From: Watersipora subatra
Taxonomy: Eukaryota
Assembly (NCBI RefSeq): GCF_963576615.1
Contig: NC_088708.1
Coordinates: forward strand, 42,861,115-42,925,114
DNA: 64,000 nucleotides
Direction of reading: 5' to 3'
Within the stretch, counting starts at the first letter, position 1. Every line of letters starts with the position of its first letter. Under the pieces are notes generated by a model, which did not search any database, was not told the DNA's origin, and saw only the letters and a program-made list of their open reading frames with translations. Shown piece after piece: positions 3,500 to 60,502 of the stretch. The translations under genes were made by a program, and so were the position numbers.

Positions 3500-5335
3500 G
3501 AAAAGTTTTGTATCTAGATGTTGCCAAACCATGCAACCATTCAATCTCAAACTGAACAAAGCTAAAAATGAGTACGTTGAAAAACAATCTAATAAACTAG
3601 ACTCAGCAGAGAATTCCAAGTTTTAGAAAACATTCAAGAAAGTTTTTTATCACCAGGAAGATCGCTTATCAGGTGGCTTAAAAGATAACCATGACAGTAT
3701 TCTACACAGTGATGAAAGCAAGGCAAAATATCTCTTTGACCATATATTTGGAGGTGGTCACCTAAATATGAATGCATTTTCCAACAAAAACAAGCCAATG
3801 TATTCTAGCTGAAAATGCAGAGAAATTCGTCTTACTTAATGAACCCATCACAATGGCAGAGATAGAACTTGCTCTTAGAAAGCTGAAACCGTCAAGAAAA
3901 AGTGCAGACTTCAATGGCATTCACTCAAAGATGCTAAAACAATCGAGTCCATTTCTTCTCATAGCTTTACGCTGCTTATTCAATGCTGTTCTCAAGACAC
4001 AAATATGGCCATGGAACAAGTCAAACTTAGTAATATTCCTTAGGAAAACTGGCAAAGCAGATTACACTGATGTAGGATCATACCATCCCATAACCATCAG
4101 CTCCCATGTGGGAAAAACACTGGAAAGGATTCTAGAAAAAAGACTAAGAGATAACATAAAAAATAATATATTATTACCAAACTCACAATTTGGCTTCTGA
4201 AAAAACAGAGGAACATTTGATGTAGCCTACTTTCTTCAACTGATATCAGAAACACAACGCCTTTAAAAGAAGCAACACACAGCAGCCATTTTCTTAGACC
4301 TTCAAAAGGCCTTTGATACTGTATGGCATCAAAGGATGATATCTAGATTAGCTGTCCTTGGGGTCTCTGATACCTTCTTGAGGACGGTTGAATCATTTCT
4401 CGCCCCAAGAAATATTCAACCGAAGGTAAACAACTATATACACACACCACAAAAATGTACAATAAGACTTCCACAAGGCAGTGTTTTGTCTCCATTGCTT
4501 TTCATTATACGTATACATACATGATATGCTACTACAAGTAGAAGGCACTGGTCTGCAATTTGCTGAAGATTGTACCATACTGATGTCAGATCATTCGTCA
4601 TCAGAGCTTCAAGACACATGCAACAAAAATTGCACTATTATGCAAGAATGGATGACAAAATGGAAATTAAAAATTAACTACCGAAAAACAGAATTAGTAG
4701 TTTTCCATGGTCATCTTCAACCCTCAGTGATGGAAAACGAGAACATTAAAATTGTTAGACTCCACAAAAGTACTTGGAATCTGGGTAGATAAGGGCCTAG
4801 AATTTATGAAACAGATTAGGAACAGCGTTAAGTCGCTGAATACAAAAATGAACATGTTAAAACCATTTCTGTATTCAGGAATGAGCTGTCAAACAGCAAA
4901 AAAGGTTCTCACTCATGCAATTATTCCTAAGGCTCTACATGCATGTTCTCTTTGGAACTTGACTGAAAAAATCACACTGCATCTCCACCTCAAACTCCTT
5001 CTTGGAACTCATTTAAATCCATATTTAGAATCATTACACGTTATTATTGGGATACCCCCGATAAATATTCAAATGACAAGGGAAAGGCTACAAATAATGC
5101 GGTGTCTGATTAAATCAGATATGTCACACATCATTACCGCTTCTCCTCACAGCTCACTGATAAAAGCATTTAAAGCTGATATCAGGAAGATAATCTCCAG
5201 AATTGTAGAAGTTGATAATATTGACTCTAAAGAACTCAGTAAAACAAACATTAACGATCTTACAAAATCAAAATGGCTGAGAAGATGGAAGATGCAACTA
5301 ATTATGGTAATTGCTCACTAGGCCTAATTGCAACT
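3500..5335 (+). mobile_element. Non-LTR retrotransposon (LINE) fragment. The reverse-transcriptase region of ORF2 is 5'-truncated and frameshifted.
   Basis: ORFs 3772..4200, 4336..4524, 4481..4792 and 4752..5321 carry RT motifs. These include LLPNSQFGF(RKNRGT), FLDLQKAFDTVWHQ, QGSVLSPLLF and FAEDCTI (the FADD box). They sit in consecutive shifted frames. Confidence 0.7.
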
Positions 5336-5992: not shown

Positions 5993-6494
5993 ATGGTTCG
6001 AAACTACAAGCGTAAAACAGAACGAGGGGCGACCAAAGAGGACATCACAGCTGCAATTCGGTTTTGGAATGAAGGTGCCTCACTGGACCAGACAGTAAAA
6101 CATTTAAAATTCCTGCCACAACCCTTAAAAGGCATAGAAAGAAATTGGGTGAGGGCTATACGCACTGTAAAACTGTAAAAATGGTTTTCAGCGATGCAAT
6201 GGAGCTGAACTTAGCTAATCATCTTAAAGAGCTAGACCTTCGATTTTATGGTTTGACACCCGTTAAGTGTCGTGAATTGGCTTATGAGTACGCCAAGAGC
6301 AACAGAGGAGAAGTTACCATGCCTGAGAGTTGGAAAACAAACAAGACCGCTGGTAAAGATTGGCTTGCTGGATTCTTGAAGCGACATAAGCTGTCCATAA
6401 GAACTCCGGAGGCCACCTCACTTGCTAGACAGTCAGGATTCAATCAGCCAGCAGTTAGCTTGTTCTTCAACAAACTTAAAGAAGTGACAGATAG
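5993..6494 (+). pseudogene. pogo transposase 5' exon with the N-terminal psq HTH and CENP-B-type HTH. It is disrupted by an 8-bp tandem duplication, ACTGTAAA twice, at 6164..6179.
   Basis: ORF 5882..6178 contains MVRNYKRKTERGATKEDITAAIRFWNEGASL from the Met at 5993. ORF 6145..6498 reads YGLTPVKCRELAYEYAKSNRGEV...WLAGFLKRHKLSIRTPEATS. Removing one copy of the 8-mer joins the two frames as ...RTVKMVFSDAME. A GTAAAC donor follows at 6495. Confidence 0.6.
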
Positions 6495-6711
6495 GTAAAC
6501 AAATCACACCAAAGTAGAAGGCAATGCACTATTACTAACTGACCAAAAGAGCCCAATTGAATTTTAAGCCTATATAAATTGTACAATGTTTAACCATAGA
6601 TATTAATACAGGCTCTTGTTTCTTACTTTACTAAACCATCAACTCATTCATGTCAGGCCTTTGGCTACTGTAACTATTTTGTTTCTGAATTGCTATGTTG
6701 TATTGTTTTAG

Positions 6712-8218
6712 GACCCAGATATCGCCTCAAAATATATACAATCTTGATGAAACTGGAGTTACCACCGTGCAAAATCCTGAAAGGGTGGTTAGCGTACTGG
6801 GAAAAAAGCAAGTGGGAGCAACTGCTTCTCAAGAGCGTGGGGAGCTCGTGACAATGTGTTGTGCCATAAATGCAATCGGCAATTCTCTGCCGCCATTTTA
6901 CATATTTCCTAGAGTTAATTTTAAACAGCACTTTCTCAATAGAGCTGCTGCTGGCTCAAAGGGAGTAGCGTGCAAAACCGGGTATATGAATAGCGATATT
7001 TTCACAAATGATTGCTTACCATTTTTCGTTAGCCATACAAAGCCCACCAGCAGTGAACCAATTCTTTTAATTCTGGACAATCATAGCTCTCATATATCTA
7101 TCCAGTCAATTGAATTTTGCAAAGAAAACAACGTAATTTTGTTAACTCTCCCACCTCACACCTCTCATAGGCTCCAACCCCTAGATCGCAGTGTATATGG
7201 ACCTTTGAAACGCTACTTGAATGCAGCGATGGACGATTGGCTGCGATGTCATCCGAGTCGCTACATTTCCATTTATGAAATGGCAGAGCTATCAGGCATA
7301 GCATTTACTAAAAGCTTCACAAATTCTAACATTACAGCTGGATTTCGTGCTACCGGTATATACCCCTATAACTTAGATGTATTCGACGACAGTGATTTCT
7401 TTCCCGCAGATATAACTGACCAACCTGACCCCAAGGCATGTCCATATGCTGCACAACAACCAAATCTTGAACGTCAACTTGATCCTGAGCGTCAACCTGA
7501 TCCTGAGTCACAATCTGATGGTAATCCACAACCTTCTACATCTACCCAACAGAGTGTTCCATCAACTAGTAACTGCAGCAATCCAAAGCAACTTGCAGCA
7601 ACACCAGTGACTAAAAGACAACTGCCAGTTCAGCACATAACCCCAGAACAACTCATGCCCTTGCCGAAAGCCTGCAGTCACCAAAGAAAGTTGAACAGGA
7701 AAAAAGTCTCATCAGCAATTCTCACCGACACACCTAAAAAAAATCGAATAGCAGAAAATGCAAAAGCCAGAAGACCAAAACCTCCTGCAAAAAAGCGAAA
7801 AAAATCACCAATGCCTGAATCCACCGATGAAGAAGATGTTGTATCAATTGATTTAACTGATTCAGAATCTGGAGACGACTTTCTAGAATTGGAATATAAT
7901 GACCAAGACGTTGGTGACATAACTCAAGGAGCTCACGTGTTGGTAAAATACCCGGCAGGTAGGAAAACAGTATTTTATGCCGGGTGTGTTCTTGAAGTGA
8001 TGGATGATGATAAGTTTGAAGTGAACTTTGTACACAAAGTCACCAACAGCAAGAATTGTGCGTTTCAATATCCCGACAAGGAAGACCGCGACTTGGTCAG
8101 CAAGGAGGACATTGTTATGAAATTAGGAGATCCGATTTCAACCGGGGGAACAATGAGATCAATTAAAAAGCTCACATTTGACGTTGATTTGAGATATTTC
8201 TATGACAATCTTCGCTAA
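6712..8218 (+). CDS. pogo transposase 3' exon with the DDE_1 catalytic domain, a basic NLS-like KKRKK, an acidic linker and a C-terminal barrel-like extension.
   Basis: The intron runs 6495..6711, from GTAAAC to a pyrimidine tract ending TTTTAG. The split codon AG|G encodes Arg and keeps the frame, giving ...KEVTDR|TQISPQNIYNLDETG. The DDE motif is present as DETG, LLILDNHSSHIS and LDRSVYGP. About 250 extra residues follow, ending in ...AHVLVKYPAGRKTVFYAGCVLEVMDDDKFEVNFVHKV...FQYPDKEDRDLVSKEDIV. Confidence 0.7.
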
Positions 8219-8985: not shown

Positions 8986-11900
8986 ATGGCAGCTCAAAAT
9001 TCCATTGGACGCATGGAACCATTTGATGAGTCAATTGAGTCATTCACATGTTATTTAGAGCGTTTTGATTTCTACACGGAAGCTAATAGCATTGATGATA
9101 GCAAAAAAAAGGCAACTTTTCTGAGCCTCATAGGTCCCAAGTTATATAAACTATTACGTGGTCTCACAGCACCAGATAGACCAACAGCTAAGTCATTAGA
9201 AGAATTAACCACGCTGCTAAGTAATCATATCTCACCACCTCCACTCGAAATTGCGGAAACATATCGCTTTCATCAACGAAACCAGCTACCTGGTGAAAGC
9301 ATCCATGAGTATGTTGCACAACTCAAGTTACTTGCTGAGCATTGCAATTTTGAAGGTGCGTACCGTGAACGGGTACTACGTAATAGACTGGTCTGTGGAA
9401 TTTACTGCGAAAATGCTCGCCGCAAACTGTTAACTGTAGCAGACTTAAATCTTTCACGTGCCATAGAGATTGCTCGAGGTATGGAGCAGGCTGGGAAAGA
9501 TGCCGAAGTCATGACACAACGACAGCCAACAGAATCTAAAGTCTGTCACATCTCTAACATGCATTCGCCTACTACCAGTGGCAAACCTTGGCCTTGTCGT
9601 TCCTGCGGGAGCACCCTTCATCCAAGAAAGCAATGCCCACACCTTCAAGCTGAATGTTTTAAATGTGGTCGGAAAGGCCATCTTCAATCTGTTTGTGAAC
9701 AGAAAACTCCAAGTAAAAGACCTCAACTCCAGAAGCCTCATAGACGAGCACAAAACACACACAGTGTAATGTCAGATGCAATTACAGAGGAGCATGAAGA
9801 TATAGCTCATATAAACACACTGTCTAAGGAGCACAGCCACCCACCAATCATGCTAGATACACTCATCAATGGTATCCCAGTGAAAATGGAACTTGATACA
9901 GGTGCAGGAGTGTCCACAATGCCATATCATATCTACAAAAAGATTAAAGGCTCATTGGAACTCCAACCTACATCTACTACTTTGAAACCATACGGCGCAA
10001 CGCAGTCAATTAAGCCGAAAGGAGTCATCTACTCAACTGTGCATTTCAGCAAGCAAGAAAGTAAAGCAAGGATGTTTGTGCTAGATAAATCCGAGGGTGA
10101 GCAGGTCCCATTGTTTGGAAGGGAATGGTTAAACCACTTTAAATTAAACTGGTCAGAGATCAAGGCTAATCGGGTCGAGGCAACGGCACAACTGAAGGAC
10201 ACTCTAGTTGCAAAGTACCCGTCCTTATTCAAGCAAACTTTAGGAGAAATGAAAAAGGTTGAAGCAACGCTCCGTACGCGCCCAAGTGCTATTCCTATTC
10301 GGCAAAAGCACCGAGTTGTACCATTCGCATTGCGGGCAAAAGTAGAACAAGAACTTGAATCTCTCCTAAATGAAAACGTTATCTCTCCAGTAGAACATAG
10401 TGAATGGGCAACACCTGTAGTTCCCGTCATAAAACCCAATGGTTCCATTAGGCTGTGTGGAGACTTTAAAGTTACCCTAAATCCTCAGCTAGTTGTTGAC
10501 TCATATCCTATGCCATCTATAGATGACCTTCAAGAAAAAATGAGTGGCGGAAAGTTATTCTCCAAATTAGATTTGTCAAAGGCCTTTGCTCAGATCAAAC
10601 TAGATGCAGCTTCAAAGCCTTTAGTTACTATCACTACACATAAAGGACTGTTCCAGTACAACCGACTCCCATACGGGGTGGCCTCAGCGCCTGCCATCCA
10701 CCAGAGAGCAATGGATGACATACTGGGTAGCCTACCAAATGTCTTATGTTATCAAGACGACATATTTATTACTGGTCAGAACTATGAATCACATCTATCT
10801 ACTTTGCATAGCGTTTTAGACCGTCTACAGAATTATGGGCTAAAGGTCAATAAAGAAAAGTGCTGCCTCCTACAATCATCAATTATTTATTTAGGACATC
10901 GCATAGATCAACACGGCCTGCACCCTATGGAAAGCAAGGTTAAGGCTATCAAAGAGGCTCCAACACCTACAAATATTGGTGAGCTTCGATCTTTCATAGG
11001 CTTAGTGAACTACTATCAAAAGTTTTTACCAAACTTAGCAACAGTCATGCACCCATTGCATCAACAGTTACGCAAAAATGCTCACTGGAACTGGTCTTCA
11101 CAATGTCAAGAAGCCTTTGTTCAGTTAAAGCAGCTGTTGTCTACAGACTGCGTGTTGACACCATACGATGTTAACTCTCCTCTGATACTGGCCTGTGATG
11201 CCTCAGCATACGGGGTAGGGGCAGTCTTATCGCACAAACTTTCAAATGGTGAAGAAAAGCCCATAGCATTTGCTTCTCGAACATTAAGCCCAAGTGAGCG
11301 AAACTATGCCCAAATCGAACGAGAGGCACTATCAATTATCTTTGGGGTAACAAAATTCCACCTCTACTTGTATGGCCGCTCATTTACCTTGCTCACTGAC
11401 CATAAGCCATTGGTTACAATTCTAGGCCCAAAAACCGGTGTTCCTCCTATTGCTGCGATGAGAATGCAAAGATGGGCCGCTATTCTAACAGCGTATACAT
11501 ACGACATAGAATACAAGTCATCACTCACTCATGCGAATGCTGATGCTATGTCACGGCTTCCGCAGCCATGCAGAAGACTTCATTGTGAACAAACAAGACT
11601 ATTTCACATTGAACAATATGCCCAACTACCCGTGACCTTTGAGACAGTATCCATAAAAACTCAGGAGGACAAAACATTGAGCAATGTCTACAACTCAACC
11701 ATACATGGTTGGCCTCCATACAGTGCCGCAAACATAGATCCATACTTTAGATGTCGACAAGAGCTCTCGACGCTAAAGGGTTGCTTGATGAGAGGCATAC
11801 GCCTTGTTATACCCTCTAGTTTGCGAGCCACAATACTCACCGAACTCCACCAAAGTCACTTGGGGATGGTCAAAATGAAAACAACAGCACGCAATTATGT

Positions 11901-12969
11901 ATGGTGGCCACAAATTGATGAGGACATTGAAGCCATTGCAAGGTCTTGTCCGCAGTGCAATGCGGTTAAACACAATCCTCCATCAGATCCCCACCATTGG
12001 GCCCCTGCTGATAGTCCATGGCAGCGAATACATTTGGATTATGCCGGTCCTCTAGATAATACAATGTTCCTAATTATAGTAGATGCCTATTCCAAATGGC
12101 TGGAAGTTTTTCCCATTCGGACGTCTACTTCAGCAATCACCATAGCAACACTACGAAGAGTCTTTGCTACACATGGGTTGCCCTATACAGTGGTCACTGA
12201 CAATGGACCTCAGTTCACATCAGGGGAGTTCATGCACTTCATGAAGAGCAATGGTATACGACATTTAACAATGGCACCATACCACCCACAAAGTAATGGT
12301 CAAGCCGAACGATTTGTACAGACATTCAAACAAGCTTACAAGGCTTCGACAGAAGCAGTAAACATGAAAGTTGATAAGTTTTTCCTCAAATATCGTACAT
12401 CGATTAGCATGGTAACAGGCAAGACGCCAGCAGAATTACTGATGGGCAGATGCCTGCGAACAAGACTAGATCTTCTGAAGCCATCAATTCAGGCTGCACC
12501 ACTTACAAACTTCTCGCAGAAGCGTCACTTTCAGGAGGGTGATTTAGTGTGGTACAAGACGTTTCAGAGACCAGCCGTTCAGTGGCTGCAAGGGTCAGTC
12601 ATGCATCTTCTGGGAAATTCCATGTATGAGATTTTAGATGCTTCCACCTCAGGTATCGTAAGGCGTCACGTTGATCAGCTACGCAAAAGAGAAACCTCTC
12701 CGTACTTGGCTGACACATCCAATGAAATGAACAGTGAACGCGAGGTGACAAAACCCAATCACTTGCCGATGGGTCAGGAGACAGGTGTCAATATTGAAGC
12801 GGAGACGTGTCCACACGAGCAGCCCTCTTCAGGCACCGTTGACTCGATTCCATGCACCCCCATGGCACAAGAAATACTACAATCACCACAATCAACACCT
12901 ACGCAAACCAGACAATCAGCGCGTGCGAAAACTGTCCCATCATATTTGTCAGATTATGAACTGTCCTAA
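8986..12969 (+). CDS. gypsy gag-pol polyprotein of 1327 aa in a single uninterrupted ORF. It covers gag with two CCHC knuckles, aspartic protease, RT, RNase H and integrase.
   Basis: The CCHC knuckles read CRSCGSTLHPRKQCPH and CFKCGRKGHLQSVC. The protease motif is LDTGAGVS. The RT motif is YQDDIFI. The integrase HHCC finger reads H..H...CPQC. The DDE core includes the segment DYAGP...TDNGPQF...E. A GPY/F-like tail follows. Confidence 0.9.
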   Translation: MAAQNSIGRMEPFDESIESFTCYLERFDFYTEANSIDDSKKKATFLSLIGPKLYKLLRGLTAPDRPTAKSLEELTTLLSNHISPPPLEIAETYRFHQRNQLPGESIHEYVAQLKLLAEHCNFEGAYRERVLRNRLVCGIYCENARRKLLTVADLNLSRAIEIARGMEQAGKDAEVMTQRQPTESKVCHISNMHSPTTSGKPWPCRSCGSTLHPRKQCPHLQAECFKCGRKGHLQSVCEQKTPSKRPQLQKPHRRAQNTHSVMSDAITEEHEDIAHINTLSKEHSHPPIMLDTLINGIPVKMELDTGAGVSTMPYHIYKKIKGSLELQPTSTTLKPYGATQSIKPKGVIYSTVHFSKQESKARMFVLDKSEGEQVPLFGREWLNHFKLNWSEIKANRVEATAQLKDTLVAKYPSLFKQTLGEMKKVEATLRTRPSAIPIRQKHRVVPFALRAKVEQELESLLNENVISPVEHSEWATPVVPVIKPNGSIRLCGDFKVTLNPQLVVDSYPMPSIDDLQEKMSGGKLFSKLDLSKAFAQIKLDAASKPLVTITTHKGLFQYNRLPYGVASAPAIHQRAMDDILGSLPNVLCYQDDIFITGQNYESHLSTLHSVLDRLQNYGLKVNKEKCCLLQSSIIYLGHRIDQHGLHPMESKVKAIKEAPTPTNIGELRSFIGLVNYYQKFLPNLATVMHPLHQQLRKNAHWNWSSQCQEAFVQLKQLLSTDCVLTPYDVNSPLILACDASAYGVGAVLSHKLSNGEEKPIAFASRTLSPSERNYAQIEREALSIIFGVTKFHLYLYGRSFTLLTDHKPLVTILGPKTGVPPIAAMRMQRWAAILTAYTYDIEYKSSLTHANADAMSRLPQPCRRLHCEQTRLFHIEQYAQLPVTFETVSIKTQEDKTLSNVYNSTIHGWPPYSAANIDPYFRCRQELSTLKGCLMRGIRLVIPSSLRATILTELHQSHLGMVKMKTTARNYVWWPQIDEDIEAIARSCPQCNAVKHNPPSDPHHWAPADSPWQRIHLDYAGPLDNTMFLIIVDAYSKWLEVFPIRTSTSAITIATLRRVFATHGLPYTVVTDNGPQFTSGEFMHFMKSNGIRHLTMAPYHPQSNGQAERFVQTFKQAYKASTEAVNMKVDKFFLKYRTSISMVTGKTPAELLMGRCLRTRLDLLKPSIQAAPLTNFSQKRHFQEGDLVWYKTFQRPAVQWLQGSVMHLLGNSMYEILDASTSGIVRRHVDQLRKRETSPYLADTSNEMNSEREVTKPNHLPMGQETGVNIEAETCPHEQPSSGTVDSIPCTPMAQEILQSPQSTPTQTRQSARAKTVPSYLSDYELS

Positions 12970-13581: not shown

Positions 13582-14955
13582 ATGAAATGGGACACTGTTG
13601 TTAAATTCATCAACAAAACAGAACAGGTTATAGAACATATTATTGCTCATAACATAAGAGATTATCTCGATCAGAATAACATCCTAAGTGAAACACAGCA
13701 TGGTTTTAGAAAAAAGCACAGCTGTGAATCTCAACTTATACACACCATATCAGACTTGGCAAATTTTAATAATCTTAACACTCAAGTGGATGTACTTGTT
13801 TTGGATTTTAGTAAAGCGTTTGATACAGTTTCGCATGACAAATTGATCCACAAACTTAGAAGTTATGGCCTAAATGCAAACGTAGTGACTTGGATACAGC
13901 ACTGGCTCCTGGACCGCACATTCTGTGTCATAGTTAACGGTAAAACATCTCCACCTACCCAGGTAACATCAGGTGTGCCCCAGGGGTCGGTGCTTGGACC
14001 CTTGCTTTTTCTTTTATATATCAATGACCTTCCAGAGTCTCTGAACTGTCCAAAGACATCCATACGTTTATTTGCGGATGATGCCATACTTTTAAGACCA
14101 ATAGAATGTGCGTCCGACAGCCTTCTGCTACAGGACCAACTGTGCAGAGTGGCTGCATGGGCTGAGTCGTGGCAGTTGAGATTTAATGCTAATAAATGCA
14201 CATCTACATCTGTGGAACCAGTTAGATTTTCACATATATACAACTATTGCGGTACATCTCTTATATCCTCGCAATCCTTTTTATACTTGGGTATACTTGT
14301 TTCTAGCACCCTCAATTTTAATGAACACATAAATCGCATCATACGTAAGGCTAACGGCACTCTTTTTATGCTTATGCGGACCCTTAAGAAAACATCTCCT
14401 AATGTCAAAAGGACAGCATACTATAGTGTGTGTCGTCCACTGCTAGAGTACGCTTCGGAAATCTGGAGTCCACATTTTGATTATAGTATACAAGATTTAG
14501 AATCCATTAACCGAAAAGCTTTTAGGTGGGCCAACAATTTAAGAAAATTTGATAGTATATCATCAGAAATGGTGAAAATGGGATGGCAAACACTTGCAGA
14601 GAGAAGACGCATCAAGGACGAAAGCACACTGCAAAAAATTTTAAGCCAAGACCTAATGGTCGATTTTAATAGATTTGTAATTAAGAACTCATCCTATTTT
14701 ACTCGAGGCTCCAATATCAGACACACAATCAATACAAGTGCAATGAAACACTCTTTTTTTAACCGTGCGATGAAATTTTAACATCTGATTCTCTTATAAC
14801 TAGACCAAGCGATCTTATACTTTTATCCTTCAGACTTAGATAAATAAGTCTATGCTTATTTGTGATCTTATTTTTATGCCTAATGCACCATTTTATTTCT
14901 ACAGGCCTAGCGGCCACTTGAGATATTTTACAGAGATAGATAGATAGATAGAACG
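13582..14955 (+). mobile_element. Second non-LTR retrotransposon (LINE) 3' fragment. It has an RT ORF and a (GATA)n tail.
   Basis: ORF 13582..14781 carries RT motifs LDFSKAFDTVSHD, QGSVLGPLLF and LFADDAILL. A microsatellite (AGAT)5 at about 14934..14953 is typical of CR1/L2-type 3' ends. Confidence 0.7.
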
Positions 14956-17900
14956 CCTATACTATTAAAACTCATTTACGTAAAGACAATACAATTAGGC
15001 TATATAGTGCTACATAAATATACTCGTGAAATAATATATGCACATATGTGAATGTAAATATAAATTTATTTTAAAAATCACATGTAATATCAGGCCTGCA
15101 TATAGAGGCAATTTATATTTTTTGCTGTTGATTGTTTAAAATAAAGAATTAACCAACTAAAACCACGTAGGAGAGAAGGTAAACTATGTTTATGGTAAGT
15201 TTTAGCAAGATTGAAGGCATTGCTTAGCTCCTACATAAAATAATCAAAAAAAATAGATATAACCTACCCTACCTGCATAATAGTTAACGTATACCGGTAG
15301 TTGGAGCGCTACTCGTACTAATTTATTAAAGCGCCATTTTGTACCCAATGCAATGCAAAAAACTAGCGAATCGACGATTTTATTAGCATCTACTTCCGTT
15401 TAAAGTTACCGCATCGATCCGATTTTCAGCAAATTTGTGTGCGACGAGTTTTTACAGACAAGCGAGTCACATGAGCGGTCTGTAAATTATACGAGTGTTG
15501 CTGTGACGACAACTCCTAAATCATCCAACGTTAAATGATGTACTATGTACGTGTTACATTTATTCAATGATATACAGCCCCCCTGGAAGGCTGTATATCA
15601 TTGATTTATTGAAGTGAACGTGTGCATTTTATTGATAAAATGACAACAATACAAATAATAGCCTGTTGCACTTTGTATTCCCTTTGTTAAATATAAACAC
15701 TCACCAAGTATTCCACAATGGAAAGGCAGCGCCTGCAGTCAGTCAACCGCTTATATACATCTGTAGCCATCCACGTGGTCGCCTACTATAGGTTCATGTG
15801 CTTGAGGTGTAGACTTATGAAAGTTTTAACCGGTTTAACCAACTTTTTTCAAGCTAGTTAAATTGGCGTAACGCCTAATGTAACCAACGAGCCTGAAACG
15901 CTAGGAAGACACACTGCAGACGAAAAGAAACATACTTTTGCATGTTCTATGTGATGCATTAGAACTCTTCCTTACATACGAACTAGTTCTTCTGGCTCAG
16001 GAGGCTATCACCGAGGCTATTGGTGTCTATACTCATCATTACCAATGAACCTAGTTCAGGAGTTAGCCTCCTCCAGTATCAGCGACTTCCATGGCCACTG
16101 CCTTTTCACCATCTAGATCCACATCAGCATCTTTCTTACCTAGATCCCCATCACCTGCAAATTCAGCCTCCTCAGAGCTCGGCTTTTCAGGCAGCCCCTC
16201 CTTAGGCAAAGCCTCAGTACTCTCATTTGACTGAGAGTCCAGTTCACAGTCATCAGCAGTCTCAGGCTGAGCCTGATCCTGCTGCGCAAGCTTACTGGCC
16301 TCAACCTTATCAAACCAGGATTTCTGCAAACTGGTATTCGAATCATTGGCCTCATAAACCCCACTGACGTTGCCACCAACAGCAACTTCATTGACACGAC
16401 AAACCACTGCGCTAGCTGGTACATCATGGCTTTTGCTCGTGTTGCCATTTGCAAATGTCTTACTGCCCTTAGCATGTCTACCACCCATACCAACCTTGAG
16501 AGGCTGAGCAGCGGCACCCGATACTTTCTGGGTAACAAATTCAGATTTTGCCACTAGCTTTTGGAGCTATTGTTAGGCCTGAGCACCAATCAGTAGGTGT
16601 TTCTATGTGTTTCTATAATCTTATCAGAGAGCATCTTATCAAGATCTTTCTTAGCTTGAGATCTTAACCCAGCTTGGGGAATACAACCTGATAGGTTCCG
16701 CCTCACCTCTCAAGGTAATGAAAAACATGCCAGGCATGGTATCCAAGTCTTTAAACACTTTAGAAAATTCCTTAATAAGATCGAAATTATCTGTACACAT
16801 ACCATTAATGACGACGAGTAAATCAAGATTTTCAAGTTCTGTCATTCCCAAAAGGTTTCAGGCGCATCAGTAGTATGATAAGAGCTCTCTATATTCACTT
16901 TACTGAACCCTAGAACTATCAGACTTGAGCCATCAGTGCCACTAAGGTGTCAATCTGGTATCAAACTCAAACCAAGTTTACTAGATTCTTAACAGTCAAA
17001 GTAAAAAAATCAGCACCTGTATCAAACCAGAAATCAGCTTCACATTCCGTTTACCTTCAAGGTCCTAAGTATTTTATGTATCTCATCATTTAGGATCTGC
17101 AGATGCAAATCTTACACTTCTACTTGGGTAGTGAAAAAGCGAACTATCTCTGTCCTGTCTCTCAGGGCTTTTGCCCGTACTCCAATCACTTTTCCTACTA
17201 CTATTTCTGTTGTAGCAGTGCCTACATTCACCTTTTCGAGTATTTTTGGTGCCATACTTTTTTACAGTCAAGACTAGTATCTTTCCTGTTGCATACAAAG
17301 CATCTAGCTACAGGGCAACTACGTAGCCTGTAGTCTCTACTACCACAGTTGTAACATTCATCATCACTCTTAGGTGACCGTCCATTTTTAGACTTAACAC
17401 ATCAACTGCGGTTATACCTTTCAACACTAGAGTCTCTTGAAGACCTGCTAGAGTTTCTATATTGCTTCTACGATCATACCTAGGAAACTCATAACCAGAA
17501 TTTCTACTCTCTTTTCTAGAATATTTATTCTTAAACTTTTTATCATAATAACTTTTACGTTGCCTTTGTGAAATTCTGTTAATTTCCACCTTTTCACAAG
17601 CACTTGAATCAGAACTTGAATAATGACTGGCTCCTCTTATTTTCAATTGATTTTTAAGAGCTTTTGTCAAAATTTCCGAAACTTTAATGTTACTAGTTTT
17701 ACATCTAGCGCAGGGGCGCTCAACAGGCAGCCCTGGGGCCGGATGTGGCCCTCAGCCTGATTTTATGCGGCCCCCCTAGAGACTTTACCAATTTAAAATT
17801 TTTATACTGAATTTTCTGCCCAAGGTCAGGCCCTAACTTAGCAGAAATGTAGGCCAATTGTAACCACACTTTCTGACCATGTTAACAGCTATGCTATGTA

Positions 17901-18048
17901 TCTTGGAAATCCCCTTCCCTTGCATCACTTTTTTCTTCCTGTCTGATATTACTGCACATGTGGGTAAAATATCCAGTTTTTAGGGAATTTCCCTAACTGA
18001 CCTGCTAACTGTTGGTTTATAAATCGGTTCATTCATTTAAACACAAGC

Positions 18049-18426
18049 ATGGCAAGTAAAAGGAAGATAGACAAAGAGGGCAGAGAATTTAATAACGATT
18101 AGAAATTAAGCTATTTTGTGAAACACCACTCTGTAAATCAGGCTGTCTGCGTAATTTGCAACCAAATTATAGCAGTTCTCAAAGAATATAATATTCGACG
18201 GCATTATACTACTCGCCATGCACAACAGTATGACCAGCACAGTGGCCGAGAGAGAGCAGAGAAGTATGAAACACTGTCAAAAAATCTCGCATCACAGCAG
18301 CGCTTGTTCACCCGCTACACTGAAATCAGTGAAAAGGCTACAAAGTGTAGTTTGGTGATAGCTAACAAAATTGGCCAGAGGCAGCTGCCATTTCAACATG
18401 GAGAGTTCGCAAAAGAGGTAAGTTTA
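18049..18426 (+). CDS. hAT transposase exon 1 with an N-terminal BED-like zinc finger. A single in-frame TAG lies at 18100..18102.
   Basis: The ATG at 18049 is in frame with ORF 18118..18549 and gives MASKRKIDKEGREFNND*KLSYFVKHHSVNQAVCVICNQ...RRHYTTRH. The TAG sits where TGG (Trp) would be expected. A GTAAGT donor lies at 18427. Confidence 0.65.
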
Positions 18427-18578
18427 TCTCTATTTCATCAATATGCTGAATATTACCGGTTCTTGTTTGAGTACCATTTATATGTGTATTATATTTGCAT
18501 GCATTTTATGTTTTATTTAAATTTTATCAGCATATTCAACAGCACATGAAAGTATTGTTATTGACTATTGTATTGTAG

Positions 18579-19209
18579 GTACTGACAGAATTTGTGGAAG
18601 AGTTTTGCCCCGACAAGAAAGAAGCACTGGAGAGCATCTCTTTATCAAGACACACAGTAATTAGAAGGATTGAAACATTGAGTAAGGACATTGAGCGCAA
18701 ACTCAAAGAGGTTGCAAGCAATTTTATCTACTTTAGCATTGCGCTTGATGAGAGTACAGATAATTCAGACATAGCACAACTTGCCATCATGGTCAGAGGA
18801 ATTGATGATCAGTTCAGCATCACAGAGGATTTTCTCACAATGAGCAGCCTTCACGGTACCACAACGGGTCAAGACACATTTGACAACCTGCTCAAAGAAC
18901 TTAAAGATTTCAATCTACCACTTGAAAAGTTATCAGGGATATGCACTGATGGTGCGCCGGCAATGACTGGAGAACACACAGGCTTAATTGGCTTGCTGTT
19001 GAAGTCCAGAGTGTGGAATGTCCCTCCTATCGTGTACCACTGCATCATTCACCAGGAAAATTTAGGAGCACAGCACTTTAAGATGGGACATGTCATGGAA
19101 TTGGTTGTATCCACAGTAAACTACATAAGGGCTCGAGCTTTGAGCCACCGCCAGTTCAAAGAGATGCTGAAGGAGATTGAAGCAGAATTTCAAGACGTGA
19201 CATATTATT
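18579..19209 (+). CDS. hAT transposase exon 2, the catalytic core.
   Basis: The acceptor TATTGTAG ends at 18578. Joining exon 1 ...EFAKE to VLTEFVEEF... keeps phase 0. The exon contains FSIALDESTDNSDIAQLAIMVRGIDD...GICTDGAPAMTG. A GTAAAG donor lies at 19210. Confidence 0.65.
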
Positions 19210-19266
19210 GTAAAGTGAGATGACTCAGTAGTGCAAAAACACTTCGTTGGTTTCTCAGTCTTTTAG

Positions 19267-20009
19267 ATCCCATCGATACATTCATGAGAGGCAAAGGACG
19301 TAACCATGAAGAATTCAGAAATGTGGCATGGATAAATGATCTTGCTTTCCTGGCAGACATTACTGAGCATATGGCGGATCTTAAACGCAAACTACAGGGA
19401 AAGCAGCAGCATGTATCATCTCTGTGGAGCCATATAACAGCTTTTCGGTGTAAATTAAATCTGTGGGTCGGTCAACTTCAAAATGGAAACTGCACACATT
19501 TTAAGAGCCTGCTGGAGCGACAACAGAGTGTTGAAAATCATGTCAGTGCAGAGCCATATGCAAAGCTCCTGACTGGCCTTGCTGCTGAATTTGGCAGAAG
19601 GTTTGCTCAATTTGATGGCACTTGCATGCATATCAACATCTTTGAAGACCCATTCTCAGTCGACGCAGAAGAAGCACCTGCTCCTCTACAAATGGAACTG
19701 ATTGATATTCAAGCTGATAAAAGGCTGAGCCAGCATCACAACAGCAATGAACTTGTAGAATTTTACCGTGATTTTCTTCCAAAACAAAGATTTCCAGGCC
19801 TATACAAACATGCTTTACTCATGGGCAGTTTGTTTGGCTCGACTTATCTATGCGAGCAGTTCTTCAGCCGTATGAAGCATACCAAAAATAAATACAGGAC
19901 AACTATCACTGATGAACACTTGACCCAGCAACTAAGACTGGCTTCCTCAGCTACCCAGCCTGACATTGATAGAATAGTCAGAGAAAAGCAATGCCAAGTA
20001 TCACACTGA
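19267..20009 (+). CDS. hAT transposase exon 3 with the C-terminal hAT dimerisation domain.
   Basis: A 57-nt intron runs 19210..19266 and ends TTTTAG. The split codon T|AT encodes Tyr and keeps the frame. The exon reads ...LYKHALLMGSLFGSTYLCEQFFSRMKHTKNKYRTTITDEHL. The stop is at 20007..20009. Confidence 0.65.
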
Positions 20010-21602
20010 AATATCTAATTACATGTTTTAGTGTTTGTAACTGTCCATGAAATGTTCAATTTATGTACCTGTACATGTATATCTCATCTACTTTAGTTGT
20101 TCAATTTATTTTACTAATCTAAATAAAGTTTACTGTAAATAGCACTGTAAATCTTAATTAATCAGTTCACGGAACTCTGTGTGCAAACAAGGAGTATAGC
20201 AACTTTGACCGAACTTATGTAGATGTAATCTCGGCCCCCTGCATACAGATAATTTTTCATATTGGCCCTCACTATGAAAAGGTTGAGCACCCCTGATCTA
20301 GCGCCTTCCAATATGGCGTCAAATTCTCTCGTGAGCTTTTTGGTCATAAAAGTATCCATTAATTGTTTCCAATTTAACTCAGTCTGTTGCATTAATTGCC
20401 TATGTAGTGAACTTTTTTCCCCAGTCATTAACATCTATTGCAAGAGCAAATTCTCTCCTTACCTTTTTATGACCACCAAAAGTGACATTTTAACTGAGTT
20501 TTTTTTAACTCGAAGCAAGTAATCACTTTCCTTTTCACCGACTGTTTGTGAAACAGGAACGAATTTCATCATTTTCATGTATACAGTTACATCAGCACCA
20601 TAAATACTAACTAATTGAGCCATAGCCTCCTCATAAGTAGAATTTTCATTCTGCAAAGAATCAACAGAGCTTAGAGCATCTCTACCATCACTTTCTATTG
20701 CGTGTAATAACGCAAGAAGTTTCATACGGCTACTAAATTTACCCGTTGCCGTCTTCATCGTTATCCAATTTCACGCCAACCCTTTCCACTACAATTTGGA
20801 AACTATCGCATCATCTTTTCCATGGACCAACAACATCACCACTATTCAAATTTAACGAGGGAAACTCATTAAAATTAAACGCCGTAATTGGCGTGTAACG
20901 AGAAACAGCACCAACACGACACGAGTGTTAAAAGCACTCGTGTTAAAAGCACTCGTGTTAAATTACCCTTGGCACCACTACACTGAAAACACTAAAAGCA
21001 CTAAAACCACACACAAAACATTTACTATGAGGTATATAAAATGAATGAATGAATTCATAAGCCTGAAGCTCAAGCAGTAAAAACAGACAGAATTGTTTTA
21101 AACATGTAAAAGACATTTGACCTCCAGTGATTCGTTTCGATCAGAACATGTTTTCAACCGCATAGAAATACTGCTCTGCATGTAATGCAAGAATTTTGCT
21201 TATCTCGTCACCATATGTCAGCAGAATGGGTAGATGTCTACGTCTTGCTAGAACATGGTATCAATAGTTGACTGGTATAGTCTCAAATTGCTGATGTGGC
21301 GATTGATGCCATCACCTCTGCTCGAGTGCTTGAGATCAGCATAGTCACTTTTCTTACTTTCTATGGGATTACACACTTTTCGATCGATAGCTTTAGCTTC
21401 ACACACACAAGACCTCTCAGTTTATACGAATTTAGCCCAGTGTTTTGCCACTGCTTACAATTGCCTGAGCCTCTAATTACACTTTTGCTATTGCATTTAT
21501 AGATTTCATCTGCTGGTATCACATTGTAACTCTTATGAAATACATCATACCAAAACAACATCTTTTTTTGCATTTAGAGTTTGCTAGCATTTTCTTCAGT
21601 GT

Positions 21603-22984: not shown

Positions 22985-23220
22985 TCTCATAGCTGTTACA
23001 TCTATAAAACGCAAGGAGAGACAACTGAAAATATGTGGCAAAATAGAAATCATACTTTTTCAGAAAGCTGTTACAACTATAAAATGCAAGGAATGACAGC
23101 TGAAAATATGTGGCAGAATAAAAATCATACTTTTTCAGAGAGCTGTTACATCTATGAAATGCAAAGAACAACAACTAACCACATGAGGCAGAACAAAGAA
23201 TTCATACTTCTTCAGAGATA
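22985..23220. repeat. Tandem repeat of about 62 bp, roughly 3.7 copies
   Basis: The unit GCTGTTACA(T/A)CTATAAAATGCAAGGA..GACAGCTGAAAATATGTGGCA.AATA.AAATCATACTTTTTCAGA.A is repeated head-to-tail. Confidence 0.7.
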
Positions 23221-43004: not shown

Positions 43005-44352
43005 CCTGTTGCCTATCTTTGTGGGGGCTGTATATCTTTGTGAGGGCTGTATATCATTGTGGGGGCTGTATATCCTTGTGGGGGCTGTATATCATTGTGA
43101 GGGCTGTATATCCTTGTGGGGGCTATGTATCATTGTGGGGGCTGTATATCTTTGTGTGGGCTGTATATCATTGTGGGGGCTGTATATCCTTGTGGGGGCT
43201 GTATATCATTGTGGGGGCTGTATATCCTTGTGGGGGCTGTATATCCTTGTGGGGGCTGTATATCCTTGTGGGAGCTGTATATCCTTGTGGGGGCTGTGTA
43301 TCATTGTGGGGGCTGTATATCCTTGTGGGGGCTGTATATCATTGTGGGGGTATGTATATCATATTGGAGGCTGTATATCATTTTGGGGGCTGTATATCAT
43401 TGTGGGGGCTGTATATCATTGTGGGGGCTGTATATCATTGTGGAGGCTGTATATCATTGTGGGGGCTGTATATCATTGTGGGGGTTGTATATCATTGTGG
43501 GGGCTGTATATCCTTGTGGGGGCTGTATATCCTTGTGGGGGCTGTATATCCTTGTGGGAGCTGTATATCCTTGTGGGGGCTGTGTATCATTGTGGGGGCT
43601 GTATATCCTTGTGGGGGCTGTATATCATTGTGGGGGTATGTATATCATATTGGAGGCTGTATATCATTGTGGGGGCTGTATATCATTGTGGGGGCTGTAT
43701 ATCCTTGTGGGGACTGTATATCATTGTGGGGGCTGTATATCATTGTGGGGGCTGTATATCATTGTGGGAGCTGTATATCATTGTGGGGGCTGTATATCAT
43801 TGTGGGGGCTGTATATCCTTGTGGGGGCTGTATATCATTGTGGGGGCTGTATATCATTGTGGGGGCTGTATATCATTGTGGGGGCTGTATATCATTGTGG
43901 GGGCTGTATATCATTGTGGGGGCTGTATATTATTGTGGGGGCTGTATATCATTGTGGGGGCTGTATATCATTGTGGGGGCTGTATATCATTGTGGGGGCT
44001 GTATATCATTGTGGGGGCTGTATATCATTGTGGGGGCTGTATATCATTGTGGGGGCTGTATATCATTGTGGGGGCTGTATATCATTGTGGGGGCTGTATA
44101 TCATTGTGGGGGCTGTATATCATTGTGGGGGCTGTATATCATTGTGGGGGCTGTATATCATTGTGGGGGCTGTATATCATTGTGGGGGCTGTATATCATT
44201 GTGGGGGCTGTATATCATTGTGGGGGCTATGTATCATTGTGGGGGCTGTATATCATTGTGGGGGCTGTATATCATTGTGGGGGCTGTATATCATTGTGGG
44301 GGCTGTATATCATTGTGGGGGCTGTATATCATTGTGGGGGCTGTATATCATT
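43005..44352. repeat. 20-bp minisatellite GGGGGCTGTATATCATTGTG of about 68 copies, with a higher-order block of about 285 bp
   Basis: The distal 0.55 kb is near-perfect. The proximal part alternates CATTGTG and CCTTGTG units. A roughly 160-bp stretch at 43215-43375 recurs at 43500-43660. The array lies in the UPB1 intron between exons 7 and 6. Confidence 0.95.
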
Positions 44353-45893
44353 GCTCTAACTAACTCACTTTACGCACATTATTATTATTATTTTTCTCAT
44401 ATTTTCCCTTTTCTTTGTACTTTTCACCCCCTTTACATTCAATTATGGAACTGCATCGCTTCTCAAAATGTTATGTGTTGGAAGTTATTTATCAATTATT
44501 TATAATTTATTTCAGTGAATGAAATACTTGTTGAAATTTTAAGGAAAAATTTACACATTTGGAGTTTGGTTGAAAATTCTATGTCCATTTTAGGCATGCT
44601 ATTTATATACTGAAGACCCTAATACATGCTATTTATATACTGAATACTCTAATACAAAAATAAGTTGCTCTCATTTGGTTAGTTCACTAGTTCACTGTAG
44701 AGAAACATACACTAGCTGATTTATCTGAAGTACTGACACTCCACAGTGATATGAATATAAAACTACATGCGTATAGTAACCTGTATAAAGATACTATAAT
44801 AAGTAAAAAAATTTACATAAAGATGAAAATGCATTATCCCTGCTAATCTAAGGCACCTTACACAGACTGCATACTTGTTTGTTAAAAGTTTAAACTATAA
44901 CACACTTAACTGAAGAGCCACTATAGTATCTGCGAATTTATGGTTCCAAGGAATGCCCTACTAAATTATCTAATCTCTCCATATGGTTATAGTCTGCAAT
45001 GTCAGCATACAAGTTCTTCCTATGTTTAATCGCTTGTTCAGAGGATTCATATTCATATCATACACTCATCACCATGCCGAGAGAAGTACAAATACTACAC
45101 GTAGAAAAGCTATCTACTAACTGGTTTAAAGGAAGTTTAGCACAACAAGAACGAGTGATAAACTTTGGCAGAGCGACAAAAGCCACTTTTATACATAACT
45201 ATCTACACAGCTGATATGAACACCTGCCGGTTTATCACTTGAACATATATTATGAAAAGCGCCGGCATTTGATGCTGATTTAATATCAAGTGTGTAGACA
45301 TTAGTTTCACCATTTTTATAAATTTGCTGAAAAGAAAATAAGAGTTTGTCCTCATGACTATTCTCATCTATGTTTATCCCAATATCCGGCTTAAAATAGC
45401 CACACTTTGTACCAAAATTTTAGATAAGACTTCTGTAATGCATTTATTGGTTCCCTTGAGGTAGGGCACTAAGGAAACCCTACCTCACTAGTATAATATA
45501 GCCAATAGTTTAATGAAACCATCTTTTTTTCAAACCTCTCCCATATGGTTACCCCATTTGACAAAAAATACCCCATGATAAAGTATATAATATTATAAAG
45601 CTATATGATACTTTATACTCAACCTTAACGTAAATGGACATGAAAGGAGTGACTGAAAACACATTAAAATAAATGAAGCAGTATTCTGTATGAGTGATAA
45701 TCAATACAATTAGTTATCTAAAATGACTTGCCATGTAGAGACACTAAATGTTCATTCATTAAAACAACATAGTTCACATGTGGACACAAAATAATCTTTA
45801 TTTATTTTTACTGAAAACAGTTGATCTTCTGCTGCAGCTATATCTTAGAATTAACCATGTATTTGAAATGACAAAAATAGATAAAATGCTCAC

Positions 45894-48525: not shown

Positions 48526-49403
48526 GTAGTGGATCTGATGCATAGACACAGATCTTAACTCTGATGCATAGACACAGATCTGAACTCTGATGCATAGACA
48601 CAGATCTTAACTCTGATGCATAGACACAGATCTGAACTCTGATGCATAGACACAGATCTTAACCCTGATGCATAGACACAGATCTTAACTCTGATGCATA
48701 GACACAGATCTTAACCCTGATGCATAGACATAGATCTTAACTCTGATGCATAGACATAGATCTTAACTCTGATGCATAGACATAGATCTTAACTCTGATG
48801 CATAGACACAGATCTTAACTCTGATGCATAGACATAGATCTTAACTCTGATGCATAAACACAGATCTTAACCTTGATGCATAGACACAGATCTTAACCTT
48901 GATGCATAGACACAGATCTTAACTCTGATGCATAGACACAGATCTTAACTCTGATGCATAGACACAGATCTTAACTCTGATGCATAGACACAGATCTGAA
49001 CTCTGATGCATAGACACAGATCTTAACCCTGATGCATAGACATAGATCTTAACTCTGATGCATAGACATAGATCTTAACTCTGATGCATAGACATAGATC
49101 TTAACTTTGATGCATAGACATAGATCTTAACTCTGATGCATAGACACAGATCTTAACCTTGATGCATAGACATAGATCTTAACTCTGATGCATAGACATA
49201 GATCTTAACTCTGATGCATAAACACAGATCTTAACCTTGATGCATAGACACAGATCTTAACCTTGATGCATAGACACAGATCTTAACTCTGATGCATAGA
49301 CACAGATCTTAACTCTGATGCATAGACACAGATCTTAACCTTGATGCATCGACACAGATTTTAACCTTGATGCATAGACACAGATTTTAACCTTGATGCA
49401 TAA
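48526..49403. repeat. 26-bp satellite CTGATGCATAGACACAGATCTTAACT of about 34 copies, in a UPB1 intron
   Basis: Head-to-tail units with recurrent variants (CACAG or CATAG, then TTAACT, TGAACT, TTAACC or TTAACCTT) arranged in a periodic, higher-order pattern. Confidence 0.95.
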
Positions 49404-55600: not shown

Positions 55601-57229
55601 TGTACGGGTATTGTATAACAAGTCGTGTTTGTTACTATTGTCGTCAGTTTGCAGGAAATACAGCTGACTTTGTTTGACAACGTTGAAGTTAGTGTTTTTG
55701 GAAGTGAGATAAGCTGTATCTTTAGCAAATGTAACTTGTGCTCCTGCTTCGGTGGCAGCACAAACGGAGAACAGACTTGTAGGAAATGTTGGTGCTAGCA
55801 ATGCATTTGTAAGTGTGATTTTAGTCGGATTGTTTTCTGAGTCGTATATTACAAAATCTGCATTTCCTCTCTTTGCGGCAAGTTCGTTACTGCAACGGCC
55901 ATCGGCAAGCTGTATGTAATGTTTACTTGAGTCGAATGTATCATCATATGTAGTAAAGTGTGTGGCGTCGTTTACGTTATGACACGTAGCTCTACAGTCA
56001 ACCAACAAGCTATTGTAAAAATTGTCTGTATGTTTGTCGGTGTTAGTTATATTTCTGCATGTGTTTTAGGGTTACAGATGACTGTAAAACTAAATGTTGA
56101 TGTCAATGCACTGGCTGACGTGTGTTTGTAGCGGTCGGTTTCCTTTTTCTTTTGGAGACATACAACTTCAACGTGACTAGGCCTTTTACAGTATTCACGG
56201 CTAATTTTGACTTTGATCTACACTCGCGTGCCCTGTGACCTGGTTTCACACATGCCAGACATACCTGTTTGTTATTGTGCGTAGGTAGTTTTGCCTTAAG
56301 CGTATAGTGATATTGCCTAGGTTTAGTACTAGCTGCCATGGCGGTTGATTGTTTTGTAGTATTACGGGCAGTTTCGGTGTTTACACGGTTACGTAGTGCA
56401 GCTTTAAATTCAGTTAAGGACTTTTTCTGGTCAGTTTGTGTATGCACAACGACGAATGAGTTGAAAGCTGCTGGCAAGCCTTTCAAAAGCATAGCGATTA
56501 TAAGATTGTCAGATATTGTTTCCTCAGCTGAACGTAAACCAGTAGCAGCTTTTTCGGCTCTAATCAAGTAATCGGTTACATCCTCTGTCTCTGTCATATC
56601 TATTGTAGTTAGCTCTTCATATAAAGTCATAATTCTAGGTTTCTCAGTATTAGCATAGTGTTGTCTGAGTAATAGCAAAGCTTTTCATTCATCATCTTTG
56701 GCATTATTCATGATCAGTTGAAATGAATGTTCATCAATAACTTAGACAAGCTCTGCGTATACTCCCCTGTTTTTGTCTGCAAAGTCTGTGTCATCCTCTT
56801 CTTCTTCTTCTTCAGCAAAAGGTAGTATGGCTTTGTACATGCCTTTGTCTGTAGTGTATATATAGTTAGTAAAACGTGTTTCCCATATAGCATATAATTC
56901 CATCTCTTCATTGAAGGGCAGGCGTCTTCTGGGCCCACAACCTGTTGAGTAAGTGAGTTTTCTGCTTTGGGTATTCATCCTGAGTAGAGATGATAAGAAT
57001 CAGTGGTTAATATTCAGATTAACATATCATTTATTTATTTGTACAACTATAAGCTTTTGCAGCATAACAGGAAGAGAGTTAAGTCAGCAGCTAATTAATC
57101 TAATAATCTGATTGGCTAATGTAGATAAACATATACATGTAAGTGTAATGATATAAATAATATATGGAGTTGTCTATACGGAGAGAGTAACTCCTAATTA
57201 GTCAATCAGTTGTAGATTGTCTCTCAATA
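52662..57229 (-). mobile_element. Ty1/copia LTR retrotransposon, degenerate, with frameshifted pol
   Basis: Direct LTRs of about 290 bp lie at 52662..52952 and 56944..57229 and are about 90% identical. Minus-strand ORFs follow the copia order. Gag with the knuckle CLACVKPGHRARECRS is at 56103..56678. Protease and integrase N-terminus at 55403..56008 read HTTLGHTNYEDIQQL. Integrase is at 54582..55073. RT at 53811..54503 reads YVDDIIIVAKK. RNase H at 52925..53569 ends YHFVKE. Confidence 0.8.
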
Positions 57230-59924: not shown

Positions 59925-60500
59925 GTCTCTTGTACAACTGCAAAGGCACCTACTGTAGTTTTGCTGAGGCCCCCTACTGTACTACATTAGGGGCCCCCAC
60001 TGTATTGATGCAGAGCCTCCTACTATACTGCTGCAAAGGCCTCTCCTGTACTATCGCAGAAACCCTACTGTACTGCTGCAGAGGCTTCACTGTACTGCTG
60101 CAAGGACTTTACTGTGCTGTTGCAAAGGCCCTACTACACTGCTGCAGAGGCCCCCATTGTATTGATGCAAAGTCTCCTAATTTATTATTGCAGATGTCTT
60201 ACTGTACTGCTGCAGACACCCCCACCGTACTGCTAAAGAAGTCTTTACTGTACCACCGCAGAGGCACTCACTGTATTACCGCAGAGGCCCTAATGTTTTG
60301 CTGCAGAGGCTTTACTATACTGCTGCAGAGGCTCTACTGTACTTCTGCAGAGGCCTGTATTGTACTGCAGCTGTAGGAGCCCTTACTGTACTGCTGCAGA
60401 GGCCCTTACTGCAATGCGGCAGAGGCCCTTACTGTACTTCTGTAGAGGCCTGTATTGTACTGCTGTAGAGGCACCTAATGTACAGCTGCAGAGGCCCTTA
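59925..60500. repeat. 21-22-bp minisatellite (CTGCAGAGGCCCTACTGTACTG-like), left block
   Basis: Repeated ...TGCTGCAGAGGC(C/T)..ACTGTAC... units produce the spurious Cys/Leu-rich ORF 59885..60376. Confidence 0.85.
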
Positions 60501-60502
60501 CT

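Follow-up and report, generated by a model that had tools for sequence, protein, structure and literature searches.

Within a 64,000-nucleotide stretch of the genome of the bryozoan Watersipora subatra (RefSeq assembly GCF_963576615.1, contig NC_088708.1, positions 42,861,115 to 42,925,114 of the forward strand; hereafter the window, whose own numbering is used throughout) lies a DNA transposon of the hAT type, the element proper occupying 2,585 bp (17711-20295). A first-pass annotation, made from the letters of the window, had described a structurally complete hAT element with a perfect 8-bp target-site duplication (TSD), 14-bp terminal inverted repeats (TIRs) matching at 13 positions, and a three-exon transposase gene one nonsense codon from intact. 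Our analysis upheld the ends of this structure and revised the gene, and we put a probability of about 0.93 on the locus being a structurally complete, coding-dead copy of a multi-copy transposon of the hAT Buster clade, whose proteins are named 'GTF2IRD2-like' or 'EPM2AIP1-like'. Many of the comparisons draw on three contigs, L001, L002 and L003 (from ENA ERZ6864144, Logan ERR9287621 and Logan ERR9287624), which encode P0002, an open reading frame (ORF) product 99% identical to the window protein. The features of the locus are as follows.

17703-17710 (no strand): left TSD, ATCTAGCG, identical to 20296-20303 and fitting nnnTAnnn
17711-17724 (+): 5' TIR, CAGGGGCGCTCAAC, 13/14 against the reverse complement of 20282-20295; the same in L001 and L002
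17725-18048 (+): 5' subterminal region and untranslated leader, with GGCCC[CT]C at 17747 and 17769
18049-18417 (+): exon 1 by translation, 123 codons from the ATG at 18049, with an N-terminal C2H2 zinc finger (C34, C37, H52, H57)
18100-18102 (+): premature TAG at codon 18 (Trp18); TGG in L001 and L002, Trp in full-length homologues
18418-18578 (+): the only intron, 161 nt, GTAAGT...TGTAG, phase 0, needed to join the two frames
18579-20009 (+): exon 2 by translation, 476 codons plus the stop at 20007-20009, with the catalytic core and a C-terminal helical domain
19210-19266 (+): coding sequence, formerly called intron 2, encoding (C)KVR*LSSAKTLRWFLSLL(D)
19221-19223 (+): premature TGA for TGG at Trp338 of the RW motif; TGG in L001-L003
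19284-20009 (+): residual ORF of 241 aa, 100% identical to XP_067930495.1, 'EPM2A-interacting protein 1-like', of W. subatra
20010-20281 (+): 3' untranslated and subterminal region, with AATAAA at 20122-20127 and GGCCC[CT]C at 20233 and 20264
20282-20295 (-): 3' TIR, whose reverse complement is CAGGGGTGCTCAAC; the same in L001-L003
20296-20303 (no strand): right TSD, ATCTAGCG, 8/8 identical to the left one

Ends of the element

The whole window was scanned for pairs of identical 8-mers, 300-6000 bp apart, that bracket a 14-nt inverted repeat of at least 12/14, and this returned the hAT element and one other structure (60596-61080). The combination of an 8/8 TSD with TIRs of at least 13/14 arose in none of 100 block shuffles of the window, and the family pattern of the TIRs, CAGGGG(C/T)GCTCAAC, occurs just twice in the window with up to two mismatches permitted. 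Their complementarity ends at 14 nt. The TSD and TIRs first described were confirmed at their positions, by script as well as by direct reading, and they are what is expected of hAT elements, i.e., an 8-bp duplication and a short TIR (about 10-25 bp, starting (C/T)A(G/A)). The initial classification as a hAT element with complete termini also held, with the TSD, the TIRs and a full-length transposase gene free of frameshifts behind it.

Across the element, the window copy is 98.6-98.9% identical to L001-L003. The alignments of L001 and L002 begin essentially at the CAGGGG tip and those of all three contigs end at the CCCCTG tip, with the L002 and L003 contigs stopping at, or one base beyond, the right tip; such flanks as are present in the contig copies are unrelated to those of the window. 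The single TIR mismatch, at position 7 (C on the left, T on the right), recurs in every copy and is therefore a trait of the family rather than decay. All of the 8-mers flanking the copies (ATCTAGCG in the window, ACCTAGAT and TCCTAAGA in L001, TGTTAGAT in L002, and TTCTAGCA in a more distant relative, L004) have TA at positions 4-5, a small sample (5/5) that agrees with nnnTAnnn, the target consensus of the Buster family, in which GTF2IRD2-like proteins have been placed (PMC3517528). No further copy or fragment of the element was found elsewhere in the 64-kb window, where its flanks are also single. Exact-protein look-ups of P0001 (RefSeq XP_067950419.1, another W. subatra copy), the flanking ORF 17308-17670 (-), a 209-aa ORF and the 241-aa ORF gave no record, and neither an empty insertion site, to which the flanking ORF might have led, nor a genomic record of the window itself was retrieved through them.

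Gene structure and lesions

On exact translation, the transposase gene has two exons, not three, and these would encode a protein of 599 aa. The exons are free of frameshifts, as both exact translation and comparison with the other copies bear out, and the TAG at 18100-18102 had rightly been recognised as standing in place of tryptophan; in P0123, a degenerate RefSeq model, the same codon specifies Gly. It is not, however, the sole lesion. The second stop, at codon 338, removes the catalytic RW tryptophan, a residue invariant in our 12- and 65-sequence alignments and in every family member that covers the position. Because of these two nonsense mutations, which stand alongside six missense differences, the copy is coding-dead and more than one nonsense codon from intact, the uninterrupted frame of an autonomous element being broken at codons 18 and 338.

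That the copy is really intact, autonomous and active, its stops being assembly or sequencing errors or present in one haplotype only, might be supposed from the stops themselves, as each is a single G-to-A step (TGG to TAG at codon 18, TGG to TGA at codon 338) from the codon of L001 and L002 (18) or L001-L003 (338), and frameshifts are absent. Substitution errors, however, are rare in PacBio Sequel IIe-type long-read assemblies. The genome note describes the reference as a PacBio Sequel IIe long-read assembly, the copy has about 28 further single-base differences (including R347W, adjacent to the RW motif), and the RefSeq model of the locus begins at 19284, only past the second stop, as would be expected if the reference itself contained both stops; we regard an intact copy as very unlikely. 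Two special origins of the stops were also considered and rejected: recoding as Trp, as the sister copies have plain TGG, and deaminase editing or a process like repeat-induced point mutation, as the substitution spectrum (5 G>A, 9 C>T, 2 T>C and 13 transversions; 4 at CpG) has no strand-biased signature.

The account of a very recently inserted three-exon gene, its introns 152 and 57 nt long and a single nonsense codon separating it from an intact state, has genuine TIRs, TSD and TAG on its side, and its second intron is an understandable choice, as 19210-19266 starts with GT, ends with AG and, at 57 nt, is a multiple of three in length. This stretch is nevertheless in frame with both of its sides, reading ...YYCKVR*LSSAKTLRWFLSLLDP..., and its 19 residues are present in 11/11 aligned homologues (41-99% identity), with V336, R337, W338, L339 and S340 invariant in that alignment and among 65 sequences. 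Since every homologue has these residues, including the invariant VRWLS, there is no second intron; its removal would delete the RW motif, and the apparent GT...AG intron had masked the second nonsense codon, TGA in the window copy and TGG in the others. For the first intron, the acceptor end proposed at 18578 was correct, but the donor lies at 18418 (161 nt) rather than 18427 (152 nt), a difference of 9 nt. With a divergence of 1.16% from the closest intact-looking sequence in addition, the three-exon account is left with scarcely any probability.

The one intron that remains has counterparts in relatives of the element. In L004 and L005 (about 65-72% protein identity), exon 1 and exon 2 are also in different frames, the intron falls at the very codon boundary of the window element (...AKE / VLT...), and their GT-AG introns, at 709-871 (L004, about 163 nt) and 264-456 (L005, about 193 nt), are unrelated in sequence; P0001 has the same junction. 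The clade of the window element differs in this from relatives at 47% identity or less, which are called as single ORFs of 598-609 aa: its intron, which separates the DNA-binding part from the catalytic one, is conserved. The intron accordingly seems to be sub-clade-specific, and this distribution points to its gain within a single sub-clade of the Buster-type hAT elements.

Against L001-L003, which are near-identical mutually, the window copy shows 29 substitutions and one 1-nt insertion in 2,585 bp (1.16%). The 16 coding changes comprise eight that are synonymous and eight that are non-synonymous (W18*, A127E, I223T, L290F, W338*, R347W, N392K and H513N), giving a pN/pS of 0.26 (neutral expectation, 79% non-synonymous; binomial P(<=8/16) = 0.009). 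Divergence is 1.8% in non-coding and 0.9% in coding sequence, and E127, T223 and K392 are common to the window copy and P0001. The low pN/pS, the lower coding divergence and the variants shared with P0001 together indicate that part of the divergence predates the insertion, and that part would separate source lineages that were still functional. Decay after insertion comes to less than 1.2%; the copy is young, though a very recent age is not demonstrable. A perfect TSD does not date the insertion either, as 16 nt at about 1.2% divergence would be expected to stay unchanged ~80% of the time (our own estimate), and the 'very recent insertion' of the first-pass annotation was therefore not established.

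Transposase, family and annotation

The N-terminal finger had been called BED-like, but its Pfam match is to zf-C2H2_12 (SPIN-DOC type; residues 16-73, E = 1.9e-9, 37.5 bits against a cut-off of 27.3), with a spacing of CX2CX14HX4H, and neither zf-BED (PF02892) nor any other BED family matched at E <= 1. DUF4371 fell slightly under its Pfam cut-off. Among the homologues (n = 1,258) there are precomputed matches to PF14291, PF27073 (FAM200-ZBED5 RNase-like), PF27046 (FAM200-GTF2IRD2-like) and sometimes PF05699, and among the 120 matches listed, those with names are nearly all GTF2IRD2-like, a few being EPM2AIP1 or KRAB zinc-finger proteins. Invariant in the alignments are D180 (DESTD), D247 (TDGAP), H277-C278-x2-H281, R337-W338 and E549, which lies in the conserved motif ...CEQFFS...; the CxxH and RW motifs of hAT transposases are thus present at the family level, W338 being TGA in the window copy. 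We infer from the motifs, rather than from a residue-level superposition, that D180, D247 and E549 are the predicted catalytic triad and W338 the RW tryptophan.

An AlphaFold model of P0002, built on the 65-sequence alignment (pLDDT 87.1, pTM 0.84), has the DDE RNase-H-like fold with an inserted helical domain that is expected of hAT transposases. Foldseek matched this model to nine chains of the transposase of Hermes, a housefly hAT element (PDB 4D1Q, 8EDG, 8SJD and 6DWW), with E from 9e-11 (about 1e-10) to 6e-9, probability 1.00 and TM about 0.5 over 480-510 columns; the next PDB matches had E >=0.07, leaving the Hermes chains as the only significant ones. The two share the DDE triad, the CxxH motif and the RW tryptophan, with a sequence identity of only 15-16%. 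Hermes D180, D248, E572 and W319, which we take to be its catalytic triad and hairpin-stabilising tryptophan, would be the counterparts of D180, D247, E549 and W338. Hermes itself belongs to the Ac family, and its TSD preference differs.

With the Buster elements (TcBuster, AnBuster and the Mar miniature inverted-repeat transposable elements of Drosophila) the window element has in common a TSD that fits nnnTAnnn, a length of about 2.5 kb and a transposase of about 600 aa. Its TIRs (14-16 bp, starting CAGGGG) may be set beside the Mar TIR, CAG(G/A)GGTAGGC. In contrast to Buster, the finger of the window family is, per Pfam, of the SPIN-DOC C2H2 type and not BED, and the family is known here from its sequence. 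The same type of transposase is found in the 'GTF2IRD2-like' hAT elements (hAT-6/Charlie8-like; PMC10641963), the best named matches being 40-47% identical over their full length. Those elements share with ours the 8-bp TSD, the short TIRs, the DDE/RW residues and misannotation as a host gene by the NCBI pipeline; the ones curated in that paper come from fish, reptiles and amphibians, while the window element is bryozoan and this copy coding-dead.

The identity of the 241-aa ORF with XP_067930495.1 extends to K392 and N513, the variants that distinguish the window copy, and this RefSeq gene is the tail ORF left past the second stop codon, a transposon fragment. The 90%-identity clusters of P0001 and P0002 hold nine W. 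subatra RefSeq proteins, whose chromosome-scale scaffolds have eight different lengths between them. Every one of these models is truncated, at 241-572 aa, and has substitutions of its own; in protein they are 95.5-97.8% identical to the window copy, with the exception of P0122, which is the window copy's own ORF. At least eight sibling 'GTF2IRD2A-like' models (XP_067950419.1, XP_067949866.1, XP_067940213.1, XP_067939950.1, XP_067930880.1, XP_067933388.1, XP_067933339.1 and XP_067943047.1) look like fragments of the same transposable-element (TE) family. There is precedent for such names, as non-mammalian GTF2IRD2-like models have been recognised as hAT transposons whose misleading name goes back to the Charlie8-derived domain of human GTF2IRD2 (PMC10641963).

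The possibility that the locus is a host gene, descended from a hAT transposase that was domesticated (EPM2AIP1-like/GTF2IRD2-like), as the RefSeq annotation implies and as the exact match of XP_067930495.1 and the EPM2AIP1/GTF2IRD2 names of the homologues might suggest, can be given almost no credence, as the 241-aa ORF is enclosed by the intact TIRs and TSD of an element and is the remainder of a 599-codon frame past two premature stops, the family is multi-copy and dispersed and each of its models is truncated or substituted in its own way, the Pfam scan of the window protein gave no GTF2I-repeat domain, and the same type of misannotation is documented (PMC10641963). Human GTF2IRD2 and EPM2AIP1, which are domesticated and hAT-derived, do have a homologous transposase-derived domain, but they are single-copy genes without TIRs or TSDs, with N-terminal GTF2I repeats in GTF2IRD2; the window locus, with its TIRs, TSD, stop codons and dispersed repeat family, has none of these marks of a domesticated gene.

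Several observations nonetheless weigh against a structurally complete, coding-dead Buster-clade copy, or against parts of that reading. The Buster assignment draws on the names of the best matches and on the target consensus, and the case for splicing of 18418-18578 is entirely a comparative one. Dimer_Tnp_hAT (PF05699) scored 17.3 bits against a cut-off of 21.4 (E = 0.004, residues 514-573). PDB sequence searches, with the single protein and with a 12-sequence profile, gave no match, so that a fold search was required and the link to Hermes is one of fold and motifs. L001-L003 are short-read environmental assemblies and may be a collapsed consensus rather than genuine copies: in L001, the 8-mers at 291-298 (ACCTAGAT) and 2882-2889 (TCCTAAGA) are mismatched and do not form a TSD, which suggests that short reads of a repeat were assembled into a chimeric or collapsed contig and that the 'intact' ORF of L001-L003 is perhaps a consensus. 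Lastly, no intact 599-aa family protein is among the recovered W. subatra RefSeq models.

Mobility, setting and significance

The proposed mechanism of transposition is by homology to Hermes and the Buster elements. A DDE transposase would bind the 14-bp TIRs and probably also GGCCC-rich subterminal sequences; a donor copy would be excised and then integrated at a staggered 8-bp cut in ATCTAGCG, and gap repair after integration would give rise to the TSD. For AnBuster, TIRs alone are insufficient for transposition and subterminal sequence is needed (PMC12637253). A search of the element for internal and subterminal repeats yielded chance-level pairs only, with GGCCC[CT]C the sole motif to stand out: it has 10 sites in the 64-kb window, 4 of them no more than 65 nt from the element's two tips. 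The left block GCCCTGGGGCCG.ATG.GGCCC...ATTTTATGCGGCCCCC is kept in the 65%-identical relative L004, which also has the last 22 nt in common with the element except for one A/G position. In view of the AnBuster requirement and this conservation, the GGCCC[CT]C motifs are candidate transposase-binding sites and the copy would probably be a competent substrate.

The window copy is non-autonomous, and mobilisation, which the first-pass annotation had raised, would be possible in trans only. Its tips are identical to those of other copies and, up to 100 nt from them, it differs from L001-L003 at few positions (17729, 17746 and 17777 on the left; 20211 and 20243 on the right), and it follows that excision could still occur if a working family transposase were expressed at another place in the genome. 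In L001 and L002 the spliced reading frame runs without interruption for 599 aa and, if these ORFs are real Watersipora copies, the window copy would be a mobilisable passenger. A scan of JGI metagenomes with the 5' end of the element gave no match. The 22-nt 3' terminus, CAGGGGTGCCCAACCTTTTCAT on the strand shown, was found there in three contigs without a detectable transposase (L006, 981-1002; L007, 489-510; L008, 345-366). In all three, the sequence beyond the outer, upstream side of the motif is also shared; the motif there thus lies inside a larger repeat and is uninformative on the boundaries of the element.

The window as a whole is rich in transposable elements, and its other repeats are as follows.

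3772-5321 (+) and 13582-14781 (+): non-LTR reverse transcriptase ORFs (LTR, long terminal repeat)
6145-8218 (+): Tc5/pogo-like element (HTH_Tnp_Tc5 and DDE_1)
8986-12969 (+): uninterrupted 1,327-aa ORF of Ty3/gypsy-type gag-pol, with protease, reverse transcriptase, RNase H and integrase domains, which may mark a young LTR retrotransposon
22991-23216: minisatellite, 75-bp unit x3
43014-44353: minisatellite, 19-bp unit x70, 94% matches, with long spurious ORFs in three frames
48534-49402: minisatellite, 26-bp unit x33
52925-56678 (-): copia-type element (RVT_2 and a retroviral SH3-like domain), split into several ORFs
59931-60502: tandem array of 23/68-bp units, adjoining the foldback
60503-61173: foldback with arms of about 277 nt (60503-60779 and 60897-61173), 88-92% complementary, and a 117-nt A-rich loop

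The second structure returned by the scan for termini, 60596-61080, was rejected as a TSD with TIRs, being a palindrome, GATGCATC, inside the arms of this foldback.

Decayed copies of DNA transposons are ordinary in TE-rich regions, and one such copy alone carries little biological weight. Its use lies in the exact boundaries, target preference and gene structure that it provides for a bryozoan Buster-type hAT family, of service to repeat libraries of the new bryozoan genomes, and it also illustrates how a nonsense codon can be hidden when a short in-frame GT...AG stretch is taken for an intron. XP_067930495.1 and at least eight sibling models, as transposon fragments, extend the misannotation problem described in PMC10641963 to the Bryozoa, for which no description of this element family was found in the literature searched. 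That an intron-carrying lineage of Buster-type hAT elements is still active is a tentative proposal, and we think it rather doubtful; if true, insertional polymorphisms would still be arising from the family in this bryozoan, an invasive fouling species, and the family might offer a new transposon tool.

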